In this document: positions 8,962 to 17,630 of the stretch, piece by piece
Layout: each line of letters starts with the position of its first letter
Numbering within the stretch: position 1 is the stretch's first letter
Origin: an uncultured Acidobacteriota bacterium
GTDB lineage: Bacteria; Acidobacteriota; Vicinamibacteria; Vicinamibacterales; UBA2999
Direction: 5' to 3'
Assembly: GCA_963724485.1 (NCBI GenBank)
Contig: CAVRUW010000009.1
Location: 547,666-611,665 of the forward strand
DNA: 64,000 bases
Notes under the pieces: model-generated
The model's input: only the letters and a program-made list of their open reading frames with translations
What the model was told of the DNA's origin: nothing
Database searches by the model: none
Position numbers and translations under genes: made by a program

Positions 8962-8995
8962 CTGGGCCCCGTTGCGTAGATACAAGGAGCATGAG

Positions 8996-10297
8996 ATGAG
9001 AGGCAACAGACTCGAGCGGGTGGGCGCGGTTCTGGTGATGGCTCTCTTCACCGCGGCATCCGCCTCCGCTCGCGACCAAGCAGGCGAGCTACGGCGAGAC
9101 CTCGCCGAAGCGGCCTCCGGCCGCGACGGCGGGCCCGCCCCCGGTCTTTGGGACGCCGTTGTCGTGGCGAATGACGTCGAAGTGCCGTTTGCGCTCGAGA
9201 TCGTCTCGGAGGGGGCCGCGCTCAAAGCATCGTTTTTCAACGGCGAGCGCCGCATCACTTCGGCGCTCAGCCGATTCGAGGACGGGATTCTGGTGCTTCC
9301 CTTCAATCAGTACGGTGCGAGCCTGCGGCTGACGTTGCGCGAGGGCGAGTTGAGCGGTGAGTATCGGCGGGCCCGTGGTGCACCGCTACCTGTTCGCGCC
9401 AAGCGCCGGACCGCCGCACAGGCGGCGTCCACTGAAGCGCCATCGATCGAGGGCACGTGGATTGTCGGCGCCAGGGGCTCCAAGGGCGAGGACAAGAGCT
9501 CCAAGGGCGAAACCGCATGGCGCTTCATCGCCAAGCAGTCAGGCAGTCAGCTGTCGGCCACGATTCTTCGCGTCGATGGTGATACCGGCACGCTGACGGG
9601 GTCGTATCGTGATGGCCGGTTCGTCCTCAGTCACTTCTCCGGTGCGCGTCCGCTGTTGCTCGAAGTCACGCCGCTCGAGGGCGGGAAGCTGCTGCTGAAA
9701 CAGAACGGCAAGATCGAACTCACCGCCGCGCGCGAAGAAGCCGGCGCCGCCGCGTCGTTGGGGACGCCGACGGACCCCTCGCTGCACACAACCATGAAGG
9801 ATCCGGCGGAGCCATTTCGTTTCAGTTTTCCTGACCTCGCGGGGAAGGTCGTCAGCAATACGGATCCACGGTTCGCGGGCAAAGTGGTGCTGGTCAACAT
9901 CAGCGGCAGCTGGTGCCCGAACTGCCACGACGAAGCCCCCTTCCTCGCCTCGTTGTACCGGAAGTACCGCAGCAAGGGATTCGAGATCGTGACGCTCTCG
10001 TTCGAGGAACCCGATCAGCTTGCCAATCCCACTCGCCTGCGTGCGTTCATCGCGACCTACGGACTCGAGTACACCGTGTTGCTCCCAGGCGATCCCGACC
10101 AGCTCGAAGAGAAGGTGCCGCAAGCGACCAATCTCAACTCGTTTCCGACGACCTTCATCCTCGGCCGCGATGGCCGTGTGCGTGCCGTGCACGCCGGGTT
10201 CCCGAGCCCAGGCAGCGGTGAGTTCTACTTGAAGGCCGAACGCGACATCACCGAGCAGGTCGAACGGCTCCTGGCTGAGCGCGCGGGCACGAGGTGA
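8996..10297 (+). CDS. TlpA/ResA-family thiol:disulfide oxidoreductase with a long N-terminal extension (about 270 aa) of unknown function
   Basis: AAGGAG SD 6 nt before the ATG at 8996. Signal peptide ...VLVMALFTAASASA. C-terminal thioredoxin fold with active site VNISGSWCPNCHDEAPFL. Confidence 0.85.
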   Translation: MRGNRLERVGAVLVMALFTAASASARDQAGELRRDLAEAASGRDGGPAPGLWDAVVVANDVEVPFALEIVSEGAALKASFFNGERRITSALSRFEDGILVLPFNQYGASLRLTLREGELSGEYRRARGAPLPVRAKRRTAAQAASTEAPSIEGTWIVGARGSKGEDKSSKGETAWRFIAKQSGSQLSATILRVDGDTGTLTGSYRDGRFVLSHFSGARPLLLEVTPLEGGKLLLKQNGKIELTAAREEAGAAASLGTPTDPSLHTTMKDPAEPFRFSFPDLAGKVVSNTDPRFAGKVVLVNISGSWCPNCHDEAPFLASLYRKYRSKGFEIVTLSFEEPDQLANPTRLRAFIATYGLEYTVLLPGDPDQLEEKVPQATNLNSFPTTFILGRDGRVRAVHAGFPSPGSGEFYLKAERDITEQVERLLAERAGTR

Positions 10298-10788
10298 CCG
10301 TGCGCCTGACCGCAATTGCCGTAGGGATCGTGTTCGCGCTGGCAGGCGCACCAACTGTGAGTGGTGCGCAGGCCCAGCGGCCACGCGCGCAGTTGACAGC
10401 GGTCAAGCCAGGCGGGGAGGTCCGTGCGGGAACGACCTCCACGGTGTCACTCAAGGTTCAGTTGCCGTCAGACGTCCACGTTCAAGCCAACAAACCCAAA
10501 GATCCCTCACTCATTCCTACTGTGTTAACCGTCGATGCCTCGTCTGGCGTCGTCGTCGAAGAGGTGATCTATCCAGCACCGACCGACTTTGCTCAGATCG
10601 GTCGAAAAGAGCCTCTCGCAGTCCTTGGGCCCGAATTCACCATCGACGTTCGTCTGTCGATTCCCGCGGGTGCCACCGGCACTCTCAAGGTGCCAGCACG
10701 GTTGAGGTATCAGGCCTGCAACGACAAGGTTTGTTTCCCACCGACAACCGGAAGCGCTGAGTGGCTGCTCGACGTTCGCGGTCAGTAG
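10294..10788 (+). CDS. DsbD N-terminal (alpha) domain-like periplasmic protein
   Basis: GTGA start/stop overlap with the TlpA-like gene. Signal peptide. C-terminal motif RLRYQACNDKVCFPP resembles the redox-active YQGCxxxxxCYPP motif of DsbD-alpha (recalled from E. coli DsbD). Confidence 0.7.
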   Translation: MTVRLTAIAVGIVFALAGAPTVSGAQAQRPRAQLTAVKPGGEVRAGTTSTVSLKVQLPSDVHVQANKPKDPSLIPTVLTVDASSGVVVEEVIYPAPTDFAQIGRKEPLAVLGPEFTIDVRLSIPAGATGTLKVPARLRYQACNDKVCFPPTTGSAEWLLDVRGQ

Positions 10789-10790
10789 CG

Positions 10791-11846
10791 TCAGCGTGGG
10801 TTGGATCCGGCGAGCTTGTTGACCAACGTGGCTGACCACGCGGGAAGTGGCGCCGGGCTCGAGGGCTGAGTGGCCAGTGCTTCGTTGTAGGACGCGAACA
10901 GCTTTCGAGAATCGCAAAAGGCCTCGACGAGGCGGGGGCGTCCAAGGAGTCGTTCGATGGTGACCGCCATTTGCCACCCGACGGTGTACCAAGGTCCTTG
11001 TTCGCCAAAGAATTCAAACCCCGCCTTGCTCACCGAGTCGCCCGCGAGGTGCTTCTCCAGCACGCTGTTGAAGAACGCCTCGATCTTTGACTGATCGGCA
11101 GCAACACGTGCCACGTTGCGATCCCAGGTCGCGCGTTCCACGGCATCGCTGACCGCGTGAGGATGAACTTCTGGCCCGCCGGCCGCAGCGAGCATCGCGA
11201 AGCCTTCGCCGAACGCTCCAATCCACGTTAGCGCTGTCCTGATTTCTGGTGGGAGTCGCTCGATCTCGCTTGCAGCTCCCTTGGAAGGACAGCTGCCGCC
11301 AAAGCCGATGTGATGCAGTTCGTGAGTCACGGTGTTTCGAAACTTGTCTTCGCCGACTTTTGGATCGAGATACAAGAAGATGGCGGGGTCACCGGCGAGA
11401 TCGAAGACGAAGCTGTTGGTCGCCGGTTTGATGACCGGGTAGACCTTGGCCCTGATGCGCGCGCCTCGAGGAAGGTATCTCAGAGCGTTCTGCCCAAGTG
11501 CGTCCATGTCGGCCTTCGACCATCGTTCAAGTGTCTGGCGCAACTCGATCGCCTTTTTCGATAGCTCAGGGGATGAGAGAAACGATTTGAACTGGCCGTC
11601 GTCAAACGTCCGCTTCATCGATGCTTCACGAGCTTTGAGCCTGACGTAGCCTTCCGACGTCAGCAGGCGTGACCAATCGGCGTCGGTAATGGTCTCGCTA
11701 CTTCGCTGTTTGTCGAGGATCGTGAGCACGGCTTCCGCTTCGTCGTTGATTCGCTGGACGAGGACCGGCTTCGACTCCTGATGTTCGAAGGCGGGGGCGA
11801 CCGTCGCGATCAACGACAACACGACGACGATCGGCAAGCGCAGCAT
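10791..11846 (-). CDS. Secreted putative zinc metallopeptidase (HExxH; DUF2268/DUF5700-like)
   Basis: Signal peptide MLRLPIVVVLSLIATVAPA. Motif TVTHELHHIGFG. No closer family assignment possible by eye. Confidence 0.55.
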   Translation of the reverse strand: MLRLPIVVVLSLIATVAPAFEHQESKPVLVQRINDEAEAVLTILDKQRSSETITDADWSRLLTSEGYVRLKAREASMKRTFDDGQFKSFLSSPELSKKAIELRQTLERWSKADMDALGQNALRYLPRGARIRAKVYPVIKPATNSFVFDLAGDPAIFLYLDPKVGEDKFRNTVTHELHHIGFGGSCPSKGAASEIERLPPEIRTALTWIGAFGEGFAMLAAAGGPEVHPHAVSDAVERATWDRNVARVAADQSKIEAFFNSVLEKHLAGDSVSKAGFEFFGEQGPWYTVGWQMAVTIERLLGRPRLVEAFCDSRKLFASYNEALATQPSSPAPLPAWSATLVNKLAGSNPR

Positions 11847-11923: not shown

Positions 11924-13774
11924 ATGTGGCCAGCGACCACAGACGGCGCGCTGATCGGGATGGGCTGCATGCGGCTCTCTACACGCCCGGACCGTGAGGA
12001 CGAAGCGTCACTGCAAGCGGTTCATGCCGGCCTTGACGCGGGCGTGTGCCTGCTCGACACGGCGGATGCCTACTGCTGGGATGCGACCGAGACTGGCCAC
12101 AATGAACGACTGATTGCGCGAGCCCTGTCGTCGTGGAATGGCGATCGCGGAAAGGTTGTCGTTTCCACGAAAGGCGGGCTGACGCGGCCGGATGGACGCT
12201 GGGTCCCTGACGGGCGTGCACGGGCGCTGAAGGCGGCGTGCGAACGGAGTCTGACGGCCCTCGACGTTTCGCGCATCGATCTCTATCAACTACACGTCGT
12301 CGATCCGAATGTTGGCCTCGCGACGAGCGTGCGCGCGCTGGCGGCGCTCGAGCGCGATGGCCTGATCGCCGCGGTTGGCCTGTGCAACGTGACCGTCGGC
12401 CAGATTGAAGAGGCTCGGCGACTCGTCGAGATTGCCTCGGTGCAGGTCGAGCTGAGCTTGTGGTCCGACACCAACATCCTGAATGGCGTCGCCGATTACT
12501 GCCTGACCAACGGCATTCGCCTGTTGGCGTATCGACCGCTAGGGGGAGCGGACCGTCGTCGGCGAGTCGAACGAGACCCACTGCTCATCTCGCTTGCCGA
12601 GCAGCACGGTGCCACACCAGCCGAAATCGCGCTGGCGTGGTTGAGCGACTTTTCGCCACACGTGACACCGATCCCAGGACCGACGAAAACCGAAACCGCG
12701 CGCTCAACGGGGCGAGCGCGGGCGATCACGCTGAGCGATACCGATCGCCAGCGACTCGACGAGCGATTCCCCGCCGGCGCCATCTTGCGTCGTGGAGCCG
12801 CGAGACCGGTTGCACGAAGGCAGCTCGACACATCACGAGAGGTTGTGTTGATCATGGGCTTGCCGGGCGCGGGCAAGAGCACGCTGGCCGCGAGTTCGTT
12901 GCTGAGGGATATCGAGCGCCTCAATCGTGACATGAGCGGCGGATCGCTGAAGGAGCTTCTTCCAGAACTCGATCGACTCCTGGCATCAGGCGCGTCACGA
13001 GTCGTTCTCGACAATACGTACGTGACCCGCGCATCACGGGCGGCGGCGCTCGAGACGGCGCGGAAACACGAGGTTCCGGTTCGCTGCGTTTCGCTCGACA
13101 CGCAAGTAGACGATGCCCAGGTGAATGCGGTGATGCGGATGCTGGCTCGCTACGGGCGGCTACTTCCGCCCGAAGAGATGCGAAGCGCCAGTAAGAATGA
13201 CGTCACGGCTTTTGGCCCCGGCGTTCAGTTCCGTTATCAGCGCGACTTGGAACCGCCAGACGTCGTCGAAGGCTTCGCCGCGATCGAACGTCGTCCGTTC
13301 GAACGTCAGCGAGATCCATCGCATGTCAATCGAGCGCTGATCGTGTGGTGCGACGGTGTTTTGTGGGGCAGTCGATCCGGCCGCCGATCGCCTGCTACAC
13401 CGGCTGATGTCGAGATCGTTGCCGGACGCCGTGAAGTTCTCGCGAGATATCAGGAAGATGGATGGCGGCTGCTGGGATTGTCGTGGCAACCAGAGGTTGC
13501 CGAAGGCAACATGACGGGCGCTGATGTCCAGGCCAACCTCGCGCACTTGAGAACGTCGCTGGGCGTTGCCCTCGAAGTGGAGTATTGCCCTCATGCCGCG
13601 GGTCCGCCTGTGTGCTGGTGCCGGAAGCCGCTCCCGGGTTTAGGTGCGCTGTTCATTCACCGCCATCAACTCGATCCCGCCAGCTGCATCTATGTAGGAA
13701 ATGGCTCGCAGGATCCCGGCTTCGCGCGCAAGCTCGGGTTCCAGTATCGTCAGGCGAACGAATTCTTCCGATAG
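11924..13774 (+). CDS. Three-domain fusion: aldo/keto reductase + PNKP-type polynucleotide 5'-kinase + HAD (PNKP 3'-phosphatase-like) domain with degenerate catalytic motifs
   Basis: AKR part: LLDTADAYC, VVVSTKGG, IDLYQLHVVD. Kinase part: P-loop GLPGAGKST, LNRD, VVLDNTYVTRASRAAALETARKHEVPVRCV, EGFAAIERRPF. HAD part: CWCRKPLPG, but motif I reads IVWCDGVLW (expected hhhDxDGT) and motif IV reads YVGNGSQD (expected GDxxxD). Confidence 0.75.
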   Translation: MWPATTDGALIGMGCMRLSTRPDREDEASLQAVHAGLDAGVCLLDTADAYCWDATETGHNERLIARALSSWNGDRGKVVVSTKGGLTRPDGRWVPDGRARALKAACERSLTALDVSRIDLYQLHVVDPNVGLATSVRALAALERDGLIAAVGLCNVTVGQIEEARRLVEIASVQVELSLWSDTNILNGVADYCLTNGIRLLAYRPLGGADRRRRVERDPLLISLAEQHGATPAEIALAWLSDFSPHVTPIPGPTKTETARSTGRARAITLSDTDRQRLDERFPAGAILRRGAARPVARRQLDTSREVVLIMGLPGAGKSTLAASSLLRDIERLNRDMSGGSLKELLPELDRLLASGASRVVLDNTYVTRASRAAALETARKHEVPVRCVSLDTQVDDAQVNAVMRMLARYGRLLPPEEMRSASKNDVTAFGPGVQFRYQRDLEPPDVVEGFAAIERRPFERQRDPSHVNRALIVWCDGVLWGSRSGRRSPATPADVEIVAGRREVLARYQEDGWRLLGLSWQPEVAEGNMTGADVQANLAHLRTSLGVALEVEYCPHAAGPPVCWCRKPLPGLGALFIHRHQLDPASCIYVGNGSQDPGFARKLGFQYRQANEFFR

Positions 13775-13806
13775 ACCGCGGGACTCTGGAACACTGGAAC
13801 CCAAGT

Positions 13807-14418
13807 ATGAGAGTCGCGATCGTTGGTGGACCGGGGATCGGCAAGAGCACGCTGGTGCGCCAGCTCGGTGACCTGTATCACAACGGCTCGTACGGAGAAG
13901 GCGAGAAAGGCGTCTGGCATCCTCAGGTGCTGGAAGACATCGCCGCCGGACGTAATGCCGTCGGCGTTACCGCATACTTCGCCGCGCTTTACGACGCCAA
14001 CTATCGCGACGCCGCCGCGCACGATCGCGACGGCAAGGTGATCTTCTTCGAGGGTGCCCGCATCACGCTCGAAGCCCACTTCGCGGAATATCCGGCGGAA
14101 GATCATGCGGCACTCCGCGACGTGCTTTCGGTCGGCGACTCCTGGAACCCTGACCGTGTGATCGTGCTCACGTCGAGCACCGACACCATCGAGAAGCACA
14201 TCCGGATGCGGAATCGGCCATTCGAGAGCGTCGACAACATGATTCGGCGCTTTCAACTCATCGACGGCGAATTCAGGCGCCTGGCACCGCTCTATCCCGA
14301 CACGATTGTGATCGACCGTGACGGTTTGGAGTTTCACGAGCGCGAGGGGTTGGAGGCGATCATCGCCGCCGGAAGGCTGCCAAGGTTCCCGGAAATCCCT
14401 TACGCCACGCTGTCCTGA
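13807..14418 (+). CDS. P-loop NTPase, deoxynucleoside-kinase-like
   Basis: ATG at 13807, an internal start of ORF 13585-14418. Walker A IVGGPGIGKST. Lid-like motif IRMRNRPFES (compare dNK RxxxRxRxxE). Confidence 0.6.
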   Translation: MRVAIVGGPGIGKSTLVRQLGDLYHNGSYGEGEKGVWHPQVLEDIAAGRNAVGVTAYFAALYDANYRDAAAHDRDGKVIFFEGARITLEAHFAEYPAEDHAALRDVLSVGDSWNPDRVIVLTSSTDTIEKHIRMRNRPFESVDNMIRRFQLIDGEFRRLAPLYPDTIVIDRDGLEFHEREGLEAIIAAGRLPRFPEIPYATLS

Positions 14419-14584: not shown

Positions 14585-15031
14585 ATGAGGGTTGCTGCGC
14601 GTTTTGTCCTGTTCGTTATCGTCTCCGGCGCGACGTCCGCCTACGCCCAGACCCCCGAAGCGGCGGGATTGGTCAAGGTGACGTCCGGATCAGCGGTGAT
14701 CGTGCGCGACGGCGTGGAGCGGCCGGCACAGATTGGCCTCCCTCTATATGCCAGCGATCACATCAAGACTGGTGCCGACGGTCGGCTCGGCCTGACGCTG
14801 AGAGACGACACACGCGTGTCGTTGGGACCCAATAGCGAGCTCCGATTGGATCACTTCGAGTTTGCGCCGGCCGCGGGCCGTTTCGGCCTCGTCCTCAAAT
14901 TCGTCCACGGTGTCGCCGCCTATGTCTCCGGCCGCATCGCCAAGCTGTCGCCCGACGCCGTCCGCCTGGAAACGCCCGCCGCCATCGTCGGCGTACGAGG
15001 AACGACGCTGGGAATTCGCGTGACCGATTGA
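14585..15031 (+). CDS. FecR-domain periplasmic protein
   Basis: Signal peptide ...IVSGATSAYAQ. FecR-type stretch GSAVIVRDG....IGLPLYASDHIKTGADGRLGLTLRDDTRVSLGPNSEL. Confidence 0.8.
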   Translation: MRVAARFVLFVIVSGATSAYAQTPEAAGLVKVTSGSAVIVRDGVERPAQIGLPLYASDHIKTGADGRLGLTLRDDTRVSLGPNSELRLDHFEFAPAAGRFGLVLKFVHGVAAYVSGRIAKLSPDAVRLETPAAIVGVRGTTLGIRVTD

Positions 15032-15678
15032 TGCGCACCCTCGGCAGCCGCGGCACGCTCCTTCTGATTTGCCTTGCGGCACTCGCCGCTTGTAGCTCGC
15101 GAGCGGGTCGGCGCATCGAGTCCACCGGGAAACCAGGTGGTGGTGAAACCCTCGCGGTCCTGTTGATCGACGAAGACAAGTCGGTGGGTCGTGCCGTCGT
15201 GTCGAACCCACACGGTAAAACGGAACTGCCGGTCGCGTATGCCTCCACTCGCGCGACGCTCACCACGGCGCCAACGGCGGTCGTGATGATGAGCGAAGCA
15301 GAGGTCCAGAGGATCTTCGGGGACGCACTGTCGGCCCTGCCGCCACTGACCCAACAGTTCACGGTGTTCTTCCGATTCGAATCCGAAGAGTTGACGCCGG
15401 AGAGCCGCGCGCAGCTTCCGACCATCCTGGAAGCAGTCAAGAATCATGCGGCGCGCGAAGTCGTCGTGATCGGTCATACCGACACCACTGGCGCACCCAC
15501 CCGCAATTACGATCTCGGCCTGAGCCGGGCAAGGACCGTTCGCGACAGCCTCGTGTCGATTGGGCTCGAGTCGGCAGTCATCCAGGTCATCTCGCACGGC
15601 GAGGCGGACCAACTGGTGAAGACGCCTGATGAAATCTTCGAGCCCAGGAATCGACGAGTCGAGATCATGGTCAGATGA
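15028..15678 (+). CDS. OmpA-family (peptidoglycan-binding) lipoprotein
   Basis: Lipobox-like LAALAAC. C-terminal OmpA_C motif VVVIGHTDTTGAPTRNYDLGLSRARTVRD...NRRVEIMV. TGATG overlap with the FecR gene. Confidence 0.85.
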   Translation: MMRTLGSRGTLLLICLAALAACSSRAGRRIESTGKPGGGETLAVLLIDEDKSVGRAVVSNPHGKTELPVAYASTRATLTTAPTAVVMMSEAEVQRIFGDALSALPPLTQQFTVFFRFESEELTPESRAQLPTILEAVKNHAAREVVVIGHTDTTGAPTRNYDLGLSRARTVRDSLVSIGLESAVIQVISHGEADQLVKTPDEIFEPRNRRVEIMVR

Positions 15679-17630
15679 AGACGCGTCACGGACGAGTCTT
15701 CCTCCTCGGCGCGATGGTGCCCTCGTTGTTCGCGGCACTTCTCTGCATCTGGCAACCGTCGCGTTTTACCCGCCTGGAACAAAGCGTCTACGACGTCATC
15801 GTTCGAGCGTCTGGGACGAGCCCGCACAGTGGTCAAATCCTGATCGTCGACGTCGATGATCGCAGCCTGACCGCTGTTGGACAGTGGCCCTGGTCGCGAC
15901 ACACCATCGCCGGGCTGCTCACGAAGCTGCGCAAACTCGACGCGTCGGTGGTCGCGCTGGACATCATGTTTCCGGAGCCCGATCGCCACGACGGCGGTCC
16001 CGTGGCGCCGGACGCGGCGTTTGCCAAGGCGCTCCTCGAGGGCGGCGTCATCCTGGGCTATGGGTTCACGTTCGACCCGCGTAAGGAAAGGGAGGGTGCA
16101 TCGCCACCCTGCTTGAAACATCCGGCCAGCGTGGCCGTGTTGCAACGTGCGGGTGAGCATTCGGCCGGACCGTTTTTTCAAGCGACCGAAGCCGTCTGCA
16201 ACTTGCCCATTCTGGCCGAGGCGGCGGAGGGGGCCGGCTTCCTGAACGCCGCGCCGGATACCGATGGCATTCTCAGGCGAGTCCCGCTGCTCATGGAGTA
16301 TCGCGGCAGTGTCTACCCCAGCCTGGCGCTCGCGGCGATCTCAAAGGCCGATCGTTCGACGCGCGCGATGGTTCGGGTCGCCAACGTCAATACCACGACG
16401 CTCATCTTGTCCGATCCCGACGGACCGTCGACGGCTGCTCGCCAGATTCCCTTGGATGGCCGGAGCAATCTCCTCGTCAGGTACCGGGGCGGCAAGCGCT
16501 CCTTTCCTTATGTGTCGGCTGTCGACGTGCTCAACGGCACTGTTGCCGCGGAAGCCGTGAGGAACAAGGTCGTGTTCGTCGGCGCGACCGCGCTTGGCAC
16601 GCGAGAAGTCGTGGCGACGCCGCTCGACACGCTGTTCACCGGAGTGGAGGTTCAGGCGACCGTTGCGGACAACCTCCTGCAGCAGGACTTCGTGCGGCGA
16701 CCAGAACACGCGGTGCTGATGCAAACGCTGTTCGTGCTGGCGCTCGGTGCCGTCATTGGGGGCATTGGGTCGGTCACCGGCGCCATCGGCGCCGCGATCG
16801 GCCTCCTTGCACTGCTCATCTCGTGCTGGATCGCATCGATTGCGCTGCTCTCAACTCAGGGGATTTACCTATCCCCTCTGTTCGCAACGATCGCCCTGGT
16901 CGGTGTCCTGGCTGGGTTGGCGGTGGCTGGCCTGAGTGTCGAACACGAAGACACGCAGCAGGCCCGCCGTGAGCGTTCGGACTCGCGCCGCCTGATGGTC
17001 GAGACGCTCCTGTCGCTGGTCGAGATCCGTGACTCGGAAACAGGCCGGCATTCCCGTCGCACCCAGGAGTACACGCGGATCCTGGCTGACGAACTGAGCG
17101 GACGGCCCGGATTTCGCGAGTACCTGACTCCGGAGCGCATCACACTCCTTTCGACGCTGGCGCCGCTCCACGACATCGGCAAAGTGGGCATCTCGGATCA
17201 CATCCTGCACAAGCCAGGGGCGCTGACGCCCGACGAGTTCGCCGAGATGCGGCGACACCCGATCTACGGCCGCGACGTGATCATCAACGCCGAGCGGGCC
17301 GCGGGCGTTCGCGACGACGCCACGCTGGTGGTCGCCAAAGACATCGTGTATTCGCATCACGAGAGATGGGATGGCTCCGGCTATCCAGACGGTCTGAGCG
17401 GCGACGCGATTCCCATCGCCGGCCGCATCATCGGCATCGTCGATCTGTACGATGCCTTGCTCTCGTCGCGCCCCTACCATCAGGCGCGAACTCACGCCGC
17501 GGCGATTGCTTTCATCGCCGCACGTCGCGGGACGCATTTCGATCCCGAAGTCGTCGACGCCTGCCTTCGCGTCGCCAATCGTCTCGAAGCCGTACCACGC
17601 GGCGAGCGCCAACAACTGGCAGCCAGTTGA
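15675..17630 (+). CDS. CHASE2 sensor / transmembrane / HD-GYP domain protein (putative c-di-GMP phosphodiesterase)
   Basis: ATGA overlap with the OmpA gene. N-terminal CHASE2-like periplasmic region (IVDVDDRSL..GQWPWSR). Cluster of TM helices. C-terminus HDIGKVGI...HHERWDGSGYPDGL. Confidence 0.85.
   Translation: MKTRHGRVFLLGAMVPSLFAALLCIWQPSRFTRLEQSVYDVIVRASGTSPHSGQILIVDVDDRSLTAVGQWPWSRHTIAGLLTKLRKLDASVVALDIMFPEPDRHDGGPVAPDAAFAKALLEGGVILGYGFTFDPRKEREGASPPCLKHPASVAVLQRAGEHSAGPFFQATEAVCNLPILAEAAEGAGFLNAAPDTDGILRRVPLLMEYRGSVYPSLALAAISKADRSTRAMVRVANVNTTTLILSDPDGPSTAARQIPLDGRSNLLVRYRGGKRSFPYVSAVDVLNGTVAAEAVRNKVVFVGATALGTREVVATPLDTLFTGVEVQATVADNLLQQDFVRRPEHAVLMQTLFVLALGAVIGGIGSVTGAIGAAIGLLALLISCWIASIALLSTQGIYLSPLFATIALVGVLAGLAVAGLSVEHEDTQQARRERSDSRRLMVETLLSLVEIRDSETGRHSRRTQEYTRILADELSGRPGFREYLTPERITLLSTLAPLHDIGKVGISDHILHKPGALTPDEFAEMRRHPIYGRDVIINAERAAGVRDDATLVVAKDIVYSHHERWDGSGYPDGLSGDAIPIAGRIIGIVDLYDALLSSRPYHQARTHAAAIAFIAARRGTHFDPEVVDACLRVANRLEAVPRGERQQLAAS

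Follow-up and report, generated by a model that had tools for sequence, protein, structure and literature searches.

The standard enzymes that 'heal' the ends of DNA and RNA during repair are the polynucleotide kinase-phosphatases; to our knowledge, none of them carries a reductase. The gene described here lies in a stretch of 64,000 nt of an uncultured Acidobacteriota bacterium (assembly GCA_963724485.1, contig CAVRUW010000009.1, positions 547,666 to 611,665), and this whole stretch is called the window below. It encodes a protein of 616 amino acids (aa) in which an aldo/keto reductase (AKR) domain is followed by a kinase domain of PNKP type and by a HAD phosphatase domain. Judged by its sequence, the polypeptide has two intact, presumably active catalytic domains and one dead, yet conserved, phosphatase. 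The closest described systems are mammalian PNKP, phage T4 Pnkp, the GmhB/HisB-N phosphatases, and the AKR13-type aldehyde reductases. A literature search found no paper on a fusion of an AKR with a polynucleotide kinase or with RNA repair, and the first-pass annotation of the window, made from the letters alone, had likewise known of no characterised AKR fusion of this kind. Each domain comes from a known superfamily, but their combination, its scale, and the monophyletic branch with a dead phosphatase appear to be uncharacterised.

Domain architecture of the 616-aa protein

The gene is one unbroken open reading frame (ORF) with an ATG start and a TAG stop at 13772-13774. Both the list of ORFs and the domain profiles bear out the uninterrupted, three-part frame described in the first-pass annotation. 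There are 120 full-length colinear homologues with 60-82% identity; the close ones that are labelled by taxon come from metagenome-assembled genomes (MAGs) of Vicinamibacterales/Vicinamibacteria and are named in NCBI only as 'aldo/keto reductase'. The AlphaFold2 model, built on the alignment of homologues, has a pLDDT of 90.6 and a pTM of 0.85, and its sole weak stretch is in the linker behind the AKR domain (aa 291-300, pLDDT down to 56). Because of the 120 colinear homologues and the confident model of a single body, a frameshift or an assembly artefact is ruled out, and no stop that would split the frame was found. The pTM of the single-chain model also suggests that the domains are held in a fixed arrangement. 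When the whole model was searched in Foldseek, all top matches were AKRs, and the search gave no information on the C-terminal half. No promoter- or terminator-like sites were found around the gene, and no tRNA genes or Rfam families in the window.

The AKR domain (aa 11-280) passes the curated threshold of PF00248, with 175.4 bits against a cutoff of 24. Its catalytic tetrad D45-Y50-K83-H124 is intact and invariant in 120/120 close homologues, and it is kept in 162 of the 166 family members of at least 540 aa. The best match among solved structures is AKR13B2 (8hnq, 2.5e-36), and perakine reductase and AKR13B2 were recognized as the best Foldseek matches of this part. A weak likeness to the Kv_beta subfamily was found as well (TIGR01293, 7.7e-05). 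By these data the domain is an NAD(P)H-type AKR with a complete tetrad, predicted to be active.

In the kinase domain, the Pfam family AAA_33 was matched at aa 307-403, and the kinase half of TIGR01663 (bifunctional polynucleotide phosphatase/kinase) at aa 295-464 with E 3.5e-22. The TIGR01663 score of 78.5 bits lies far under the equivalog cutoff of 502.8 bits; therefore, the protein is not an orthologue of PNKP. The kinase of mouse PNKP was matched among solved structures with E 6e-15 by the window protein and with an independent E-value (i-E) of 2e-23 by the family profile. The motifs GxPGAGKST, NRD, DNT..SRA, VP.RC, and EGF..I..PF align with it residue by residue, as the first-pass annotation had noted. 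In the P-loop, G312, P314, G317, and K318 are invariant in 120/120 homologues. Invariant or nearly so among them are G312, K318, R335, D336, D363, N364, T365, R369, R372, N401, and R405, and in essentially all representatives of the wider family K318, D336, D363, R369, and R372 are kept. The Asp of the N-R-D motif, to which D336 corresponds, is what we take to be the general base in PNKP.

When the family profile was compared with the PDB, PNKP came first among the matches of the kinase (1e-43 overall), followed by the Rhizopus RNA kinase 9d8a, T4 Pnk (1ltq), Capnocytophaga Pnkp1 (4xrp), and the kinase of Clostridium thermocellum Pnkp (CthPnkp, 4gp7). Entry 9d8a is a fungal RNA 5'-OH kinase (PMC11571804). 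All top matches of the kinase are thus polynucleotide kinases, and kinases of small-molecule type, namely zeta toxin and PSTK, were reached only at E of about 0.008. By sequence, the domain is assigned to the PNKP/T4-Pnk lineage of polynucleotide 5'-OH kinases, with all catalytic residues present.

The HAD domain was matched at aa 471-607 by the HAD-IIIA profiles TIGR01656 (4.8e-10; 39.5 bits, cutoff 84.15) and TIGR01662 (7.6e-07; 29.3 bits, cutoff 44.6) and by GmhB PRK08942 (1e-08), all under their curated cutoffs. Neither PF08645 (PNK3P) nor another Pfam HAD family matched the window protein at E<=1. Its catalytic motifs were assigned by alignment with 14 stand-alone relatives bearing canonical motifs. 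In motif I, the window protein has V-W475-C-D477-G-V-L-W, where intact relatives have L-D-Y-D-G-T-L-R, and the Trp aligns with the nucleophilic Asp; among the 120 close homologues, W475 is found in 118, D477 in 115, and the Val in 103. Motif II reads S520-W521-Q in place of S-N-Q (S520 in 106/120), and motif III C-W-C-R-K568-P in place of C-Y-C-R-K-P, with K568 in 120/120. Motif IV is G-N-G-S-Q-D against G-D-M-T-T-D in intact relatives; its position 593 is variable (A in 50, S in 22, and N in 21 of the 120 homologues) and D597 is invariant. Motif I has thus lost both its nucleophilic Asp (now Trp) and its Thr, motif II its Asn, and motif IV the first of its Asp residues. Neither the alignment nor direct reading of the HAD segment revealed an alternative DxDGT or any other D-x-D. 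Both degenerate motifs, I and IV, had been read in the same way by the first-pass annotation. Each of the three refuting conditions that it had named (a DxDGT elsewhere, a kinase of small-molecule type, a split frame) was checked, and none applied.

The rest of the domain is well preserved. The motif C555-x-H557...C564-x-C566, which we take to be the zinc loop of GmhB/HisB-N, is present in nearly all family representatives, and PNKP has an alignment gap there. The stretch C-W-C-R-K-P-L-P-G is kept in 120/120 homologues. Sequence conservation thus indicates that the HAD domain is under strong purifying selection apart from the lost catalytic residues, and for this reason it is regarded as a conserved pseudo-phosphatase and not as a decaying remnant. 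The assignment of this part to the 3'-phosphatases of PNKP and T4 Pnk, made in the first-pass annotation, stands only in part. A PNKP-like SG..P..P.D signature is retained as S-R-S-G-R-R-S-P-A-T-P-A-D, and intact relatives exceed the PF08645 threshold, but the best solved match is GmhB (4pnh, 5.7e-10), and the PNKP phosphatase is found only with a domain i-E of 3.2. In sequence, the domain is nearer to the Zn-loop GmhB/HisB type, yet it carries the PNKP-like signature and is homologous to the 3'-phosphatase domain of its relatives.

Family classes and phage relatives

The family was searched exhaustively in HMMER with the kinase-HAD segment and counted as clusters at 50% identity, which gave 1822 clusters at E<=1e-3 and 379 at E<=1e-30. 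Its only label in databases is 'aldo/keto reductase'. When one genome of each GTDB species was scanned with a pattern-limited search built from a 5-sequence alignment, a relative was recognized in 308 species; the best 80 of these were used for the locus comparisons and are almost all labelled Acidobacteriota or Vicinamibacteria. It is a widespread bacterial family, spread over hundreds of species, in which an intact aldehyde reductase is fused to an enzyme of end-healing type.

Two classes were distinguished when catalytic columns were scored in 151 representatives together with their Pfam content. Class A has an intact HAD domain, with D-x-D-G-T, S/T-N, K, and G-D-x-x-x-D, and comprises stand-alone kinase-HAD proteins of about 310 aa as well as proteins of about 740-855 aa with an N-terminal extension, AKR, kinase, and HAD. 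The intact HAD domains exceed the threshold of PF08645 and match the PNKP phosphatase with an i-E of 5e-14, including the segment D-G-T-L..T.S-G..F-P..P.D; the HAD of the family profile matches GmhB with 2.6e-20, above the score of the PNKP phosphatase. Class B, which includes the window protein, consists of AKR-kinase-HAD proteins of about 560-630 aa with a degenerate HAD. Its members have E, D, W, or Q at the position of the nucleophile and V or L in place of the Thr in motif I, W in place of the Asn in motif II, and R, K, S, A, or N in place of the first Asp in motif IV. They retain the Zn-loop-type motif and the residues of the kinase.

In a neighbour-joining tree of the kinase-HAD module of 101 representatives, all 43 class-B sequences form one clade with no class-A member inside. 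Nucleophile loss is, therefore, not confined to the window gene and marks a whole monophyletic subfamily. Since class B is a single clade, the loss of phosphatase activity was probably one early event in this branch, after which the position of the nucleophile drifted. The variant with Trp is that of the close homologues of the window protein, whose taxon labels are all Vicinamibacterales/Vicinamibacteria. A branch with a live phosphatase next to a monophyletic branch with a dead but conserved one offers a clean system in which the retention of pseudo-enzymes can be studied.

The class-A proteins P0389 and P0251 and about 18 other intact-phosphatase forms of about 750-850 aa share a conserved N-terminal extension (residues 1 to about 150) with the pattern ..PPLSNxELSxGL...vGRFvS..PR.RR.RPD...W.v.n..G...dWdd..WD. 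No Pfam match and no PDB profile match was found for this extension of the relatives of about 800 aa; by its look it is perhaps helix-turn-helix-like. Another family member, P0303, has WD40 repeats at the N-terminus in place of the AKR domain.

Stand-alone class-A genes were identified on phages. They lie on a contig of phage-like character, where a gene for an NAD-dependent DNA ligase is only a few genes away, and in the genomes of two huge phages, LR756511.1 and LR756500.1, one 462 kb and the other 595 kb long. Twenty IMG/VR contigs (loci L097-L116), many of them 177-572 kb long, also carry such relatives, and DYDGTL is intact in nearly all. In most of the huge-phage relatives inspected, the intact DYDGTL is accompanied by the Zn-loop-type motif CxCRKP. 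By their motifs, these stand-alone kinase-HADs look like a Zn-loop variant of the T4-type Pnkp, apparently not described before. Two further class-A members, P0273 (1059 aa) and P0436 (1061 aa), have an extra C-terminus of about 300 aa after the intact HAD (residues from about 750 to 1059). This extension is similar to phage DNA-primase families in PHROGs (phrog_9765, 2.3e-9; phrog_2135, 4e-7) and holds the motifs L-A-L-D-H-D and T-W-S-H-H. Provisionally, it may represent a domain of primase-polymerase type joined to the end-healing module.

Proposed function, alternatives, and neighbouring genes

The tri-domain protein is quite possibly an enzyme that processes nucleic-acid (or nucleotide) ends and whose reduction step supplies the kinase with its substrate, and this reading is tentatively preferred. 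The AKR would turn an aldehyde into a primary alcohol, on which the fused 5'-OH kinase would then place a phosphate; that the reductase makes the alcohol for the kinase is the simplest chemical logic for such a fusion. Three observations point to a nucleic-acid or nucleotide end as the substrate: the kinase belongs to a polynucleotide-kinase lineage, the sister branch has a phosphatase of PNK3P type, and some relatives are phage genes. The dead HAD would no longer hydrolyse a 3'-phosphate and could serve as a structural scaffold or bind ends or phosphates, since the domain is conserved in class B though the aspartyl-phosphate intermediate cannot form. Use of the pseudo-phosphatase as a binding domain, already supposed in the first-pass annotation, is what we infer from this conservation.

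A more specific form of this reading concerns strand breaks caused by oxidation of the sugar at C5', of which the partner end carries a 3'-phosphate. Such oxidation is due to hydroxyl radicals, ionising radiation, and enediynes such as neocarzinostatin (PMC12564780; PMC4227780). Abstraction of the C5' hydrogen leads to a 5'-aldehyde terminus, the major product of radical cleavage in both DNA and RNA (PMC12564780, section 2.5; PMC4227780). Borohydride turns the 5'-aldehyde into 5'-OH (PMC12564780; PMC4227780), and the only repair described for 5'-aldehyde DNA ends is non-specific long-patch base excision repair (PMC12564780, section 2.5; PMC4227780). To make the ends of such a break ligatable again, precisely an AKR, a 5'-kinase, and a 3'-phosphatase would be needed, and on this domain logic the family could be a dedicated healing enzyme for C5'-oxidation breaks, an idea that we consider unlikely as it stands. 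The AKR would then reduce 5'-CHO to 5'-CH2OH as the enzymatic counterpart of borohydride, and the fused PNK-type kinase would make a 5'-phosphate from the reduced end. The 3'-phosphate of the partner end would be taken off by the PNK3P-type HAD in the branch where this is intact; in the branch of the window protein, the dead HAD would do no more than keep the 3' side of the nick in place. If true, the family would provide the first example of direct enzymatic reversal at 5'-aldehyde ends, and the fusion suggests a third end-healing chemistry, the reduction of an aldehyde-blocked end.

Several observations weigh against nucleic-acid ends as the substrate. The nearest AKRs, namely AKR13B2, perakine reductase, pyridoxal reductase PDXI, and tylosin reductase AKRtyl, are small-molecule enzymes. 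The HAD scores higher with GmhB, a sugar-bisphosphate phosphatase, than with the PNKP phosphatase, and it shares the Zn-loop-type motif of GmhB/HisB-N. No gene neighbourhood of any kind, and in particular none with repair or ligase genes, was conserved in the three class-B and three class-A loci examined. The primase-like extension of P0273 and P0436 has no Pfam or PDB match, and PHROGs are its sole support. T4-type kinases also phosphorylate mononucleotides, and so a nucleotide or a nucleoside may be the substrate instead. In small-molecule salvage or detoxification, the AKR would reduce a free aldehyde (a nucleoside 5'-aldehyde, a sugar, or an aldehyde of vitamin-B6 or antibiotic type), the kinase would phosphorylate the product, and the HAD of intact relatives would remove another phosphate, with no end as a substrate. 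If so, the family would stand for an uncharacterised reduce-then-phosphorylate pathway, abundant in soil Acidobacteriota. This explanation is judged somewhat improbable, however, as all significant matches of the kinase are polynucleotide kinases (small-molecule kinases appear at E of about 0.008 or worse) and the intact relatives pass the PNK3P threshold and carry the PNKP-specific SG..FP..P.D segment. Likewise, the stand-alone relatives are phage genes, as is T4 Pnk, and two members bear the primase-like extension.

Kv-beta AKR subunits are redox-sensing regulatory modules of potassium channels, and the AKR of the window protein could similarly be an NAD(P)H- or redox-sensing regulator of the polynucleotide kinase, with a purely structural dead HAD. 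The weak Kv_beta similarity agrees with such a role, the confident model, with its domains held rigidly, would allow for allosteric coupling, and a redoxin/AhpC gene is nearby in the window and in a few relatives. The complete tetrad in 162/166 family members nevertheless argues for catalysis, and across the 80 related loci redoxin neighbours show no enrichment, which makes a regulatory AKR quite improbable. Even less credit, close to none, is given to a two-gene unit for nucleotide 5'-phosphorylation formed with the dNK-like kinase gene downstream. Both genes are read from the same strand, 32 nt apart, and no terminator-like site lies in the spacer. When the window's neighbours were compared by tblastn with the 80 related species loci, however, a homologue of the small kinase gene was downstream of the tri-domain gene in two only. 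These two (L010 and L023) are the closest relatives and have the whole local synteny in common, including the DUF5700 gene upstream. The examined homologues of the tri-domain gene are followed by other genes, and the small kinase family occurs elsewhere in unrelated gene contexts. Conservation differs also, with about 80% identity for the small kinase against about 62% for the adjoining tri-domain protein; the former evolves much more slowly, in the manner of an independent housekeeping-like gene. A conserved operon of the two genes was, therefore, rejected, the two-gene module is largely refuted, and the small kinase gene is an unrelated neighbour and not a partner.

The downstream gene starts with ATG (MRVAIVGGPGIGKST) at 13807, and the spacer is one nt shorter than the 33 nt given in the first-pass annotation. 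That annotation described its product as a P-loop kinase similar to deoxynucleoside kinases; the P-loop kinase fold stands, but the assignment to dNK is weak. PF01712 (dNK) scored 15.2 bits, under its cutoff of 27 (E 0.019), and in the lid region only, and no curated family was matched above threshold. The best sequence match is the ribosylnicotinamide-kinase (RNK) domain of NadR (4.6e-4). In Foldseek, a model with a pLDDT of 85 matched TMPK, dCK, dAK, AK, and NadR about equally (E of about 1e-5, TM of about 0.5). The family numbers 3159 matches in MAGs labelled Vicinamibacterales and Gemmatimonadetes, and its JGI name is 'deoxyadenosine/deoxycytidine kinase'. The linkage of the tri-domain gene to a dNK-like gene, to which the first-pass annotation had drawn attention, is thus restricted to two fully syntenic loci among the 80.

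Other genes of the surroundings are listed in Table 1. Upstream, in divergent orientation, is a gene for a DUF5700 protein, a putative zinc peptidase, which is syntenic only in L010 and L023. Farther upstream, the redoxin-like protein and the DsbD_N-like protein are coded with an overlap of 4 nt, which suggests an envelope thiol-disulfide pair. A link to oxidative stress through this AhpC/redoxin neighbour was considered but is not supported; such genes were seen in several loci, yet they are not enriched across the 80. Downstream of the small kinase gene, three genes with overlapping stop and start codons (14585..17630, forward strand) form an apparent signalling operon.

Table 1. Positions of the tri-domain gene, its domains and motifs, and the neighbouring genes in the window
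Feature	Position	Strand	Basis or remark
441-aa protein with C-terminal redoxin/AhpC-TSA/thioredoxin-like domain (WCPNC), and overlapping 164-aa DsbD_N-like protein	8972..10788	+	
351-aa DUF5700 protein, putative zinc peptidase (HELHH)	10791..11846	-	
Single 616-aa ORF, AKR + PNKP-type kinase + degenerate HAD	11924..13774 incl. stop	+	ORF list, colinear homologues, AlphaFold2 model
AKR domain, aa 11-280	11954..12763	+	PF00248, E 1.8e-51
Variable Arg/Ala/Pro-rich linker, aa 281-305	12764..12838	+	Columns 290-305 poorly conserved; low pLDDT at aa 291-300
PNKP-type P-loop polynucleotide 5'-OH-kinase-like domain, aa 306-464	12839..13315	+	Mouse PNKP and TIGR01663 matches
Walker A / P-loop G312-L-P-G-A-G-K318-S-T320	12857..12883	+	Aligns with PNKP GFPGAGKST
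N334-R335-D336	12923..12931	+	Aligns with PNKP VNRD; R335 and D336 in 120/120
HAD-IIIA fold domain, aa 471-616, catalytically degenerate	13334..13771	+	TIGR01656/TIGR01662, GmhB 4pnh
Degenerate motif I W475-C-D477-G-V479 (canonical D-x-D-G-T)	13346..13360	+	L-D-Y-D-G-T-L-R in intact relatives
Zn-loop-type motif C555-P-H557...C564-W-C566, then motif III R-K568-P	13586..13621	+	C/H/C/C in 119-120/120
Degenerate motif IV G592-N-G-S-Q-D597 (canonical G-D-x-x-x-D)	13697..13714	+	V-G-D-M-T-T-D in intact relatives
203-aa P-loop protein, nucleoside/nucleotide-kinase fold	13807..14418	+	Neighbour of the tri-domain gene, not a conserved partner
FecR-domain protein	14585-15031	+	First gene of apparent signalling operon
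OmpA-family protein	15028-15678	+	Second gene of apparent signalling operon
CHASE2 sensor fused to HD-GYP-type HD domain (HHERWDGSGYP)	15675-17630	+	Third gene of apparent signalling operon

Comparison with known systems

The AKR13-type aldehyde reductases (AKR13B2, 8hnq; perakine reductase, 3v0s) resemble the N-terminal part of the window protein in the (alpha/beta)8 fold and the tetrad, with about 30-35% identity. They are, however, single-domain enzymes with small-aldehyde substrates, and no fusion of them to a nucleic-acid end-processing module is known. GmhB/HisB-N (4pnh, 2gmw, 2fpr) are the best-scoring solved relatives of the HAD and have C-x-H...C-x-C just ahead of the Lys of motif III, as in the window protein. 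In contrast to it, they are active phosphatases with D-x-D-G-T, stand-alone or fused in HisB, and have no fusion to a PNK-type kinase or to an AKR; the NCBIfam GmhB models score far under their cutoff on the window protein (34.9 vs 178).

Mammalian PNKP (1yj5, 3zvl, 3u7e) is the best sequence match of the kinase and has the P-loop, N-R-D, D-N-T, S-R-A, and E-G-F in common with it. Its order is FHA, phosphatase, and kinase, whereas the window protein has the kinase before the HAD, no FHA, and an AKR added. PNKP also has a gap where the Cys/His Zn-loop-type motif of the window family is located, and its phosphatase is part of a bifunctional enzyme, unlike the HAD of the window protein, which is without the nucleophile. 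Phage T4 Pnkp (1ltq) differs in that it has no Zn loop and no AKR and its phosphatase is active, and the family profile matches it only over the P-loop (E 4.6e-9, positions 3-67). It does share the order of an N-terminal P-loop 5'-kinase and a C-terminal HAD phosphatase, the resemblance that had been pointed out in the first-pass annotation and that holds. As with T4 Pnkp, the stand-alone members of the family of about 310 aa are encoded by phages, huge phages included.

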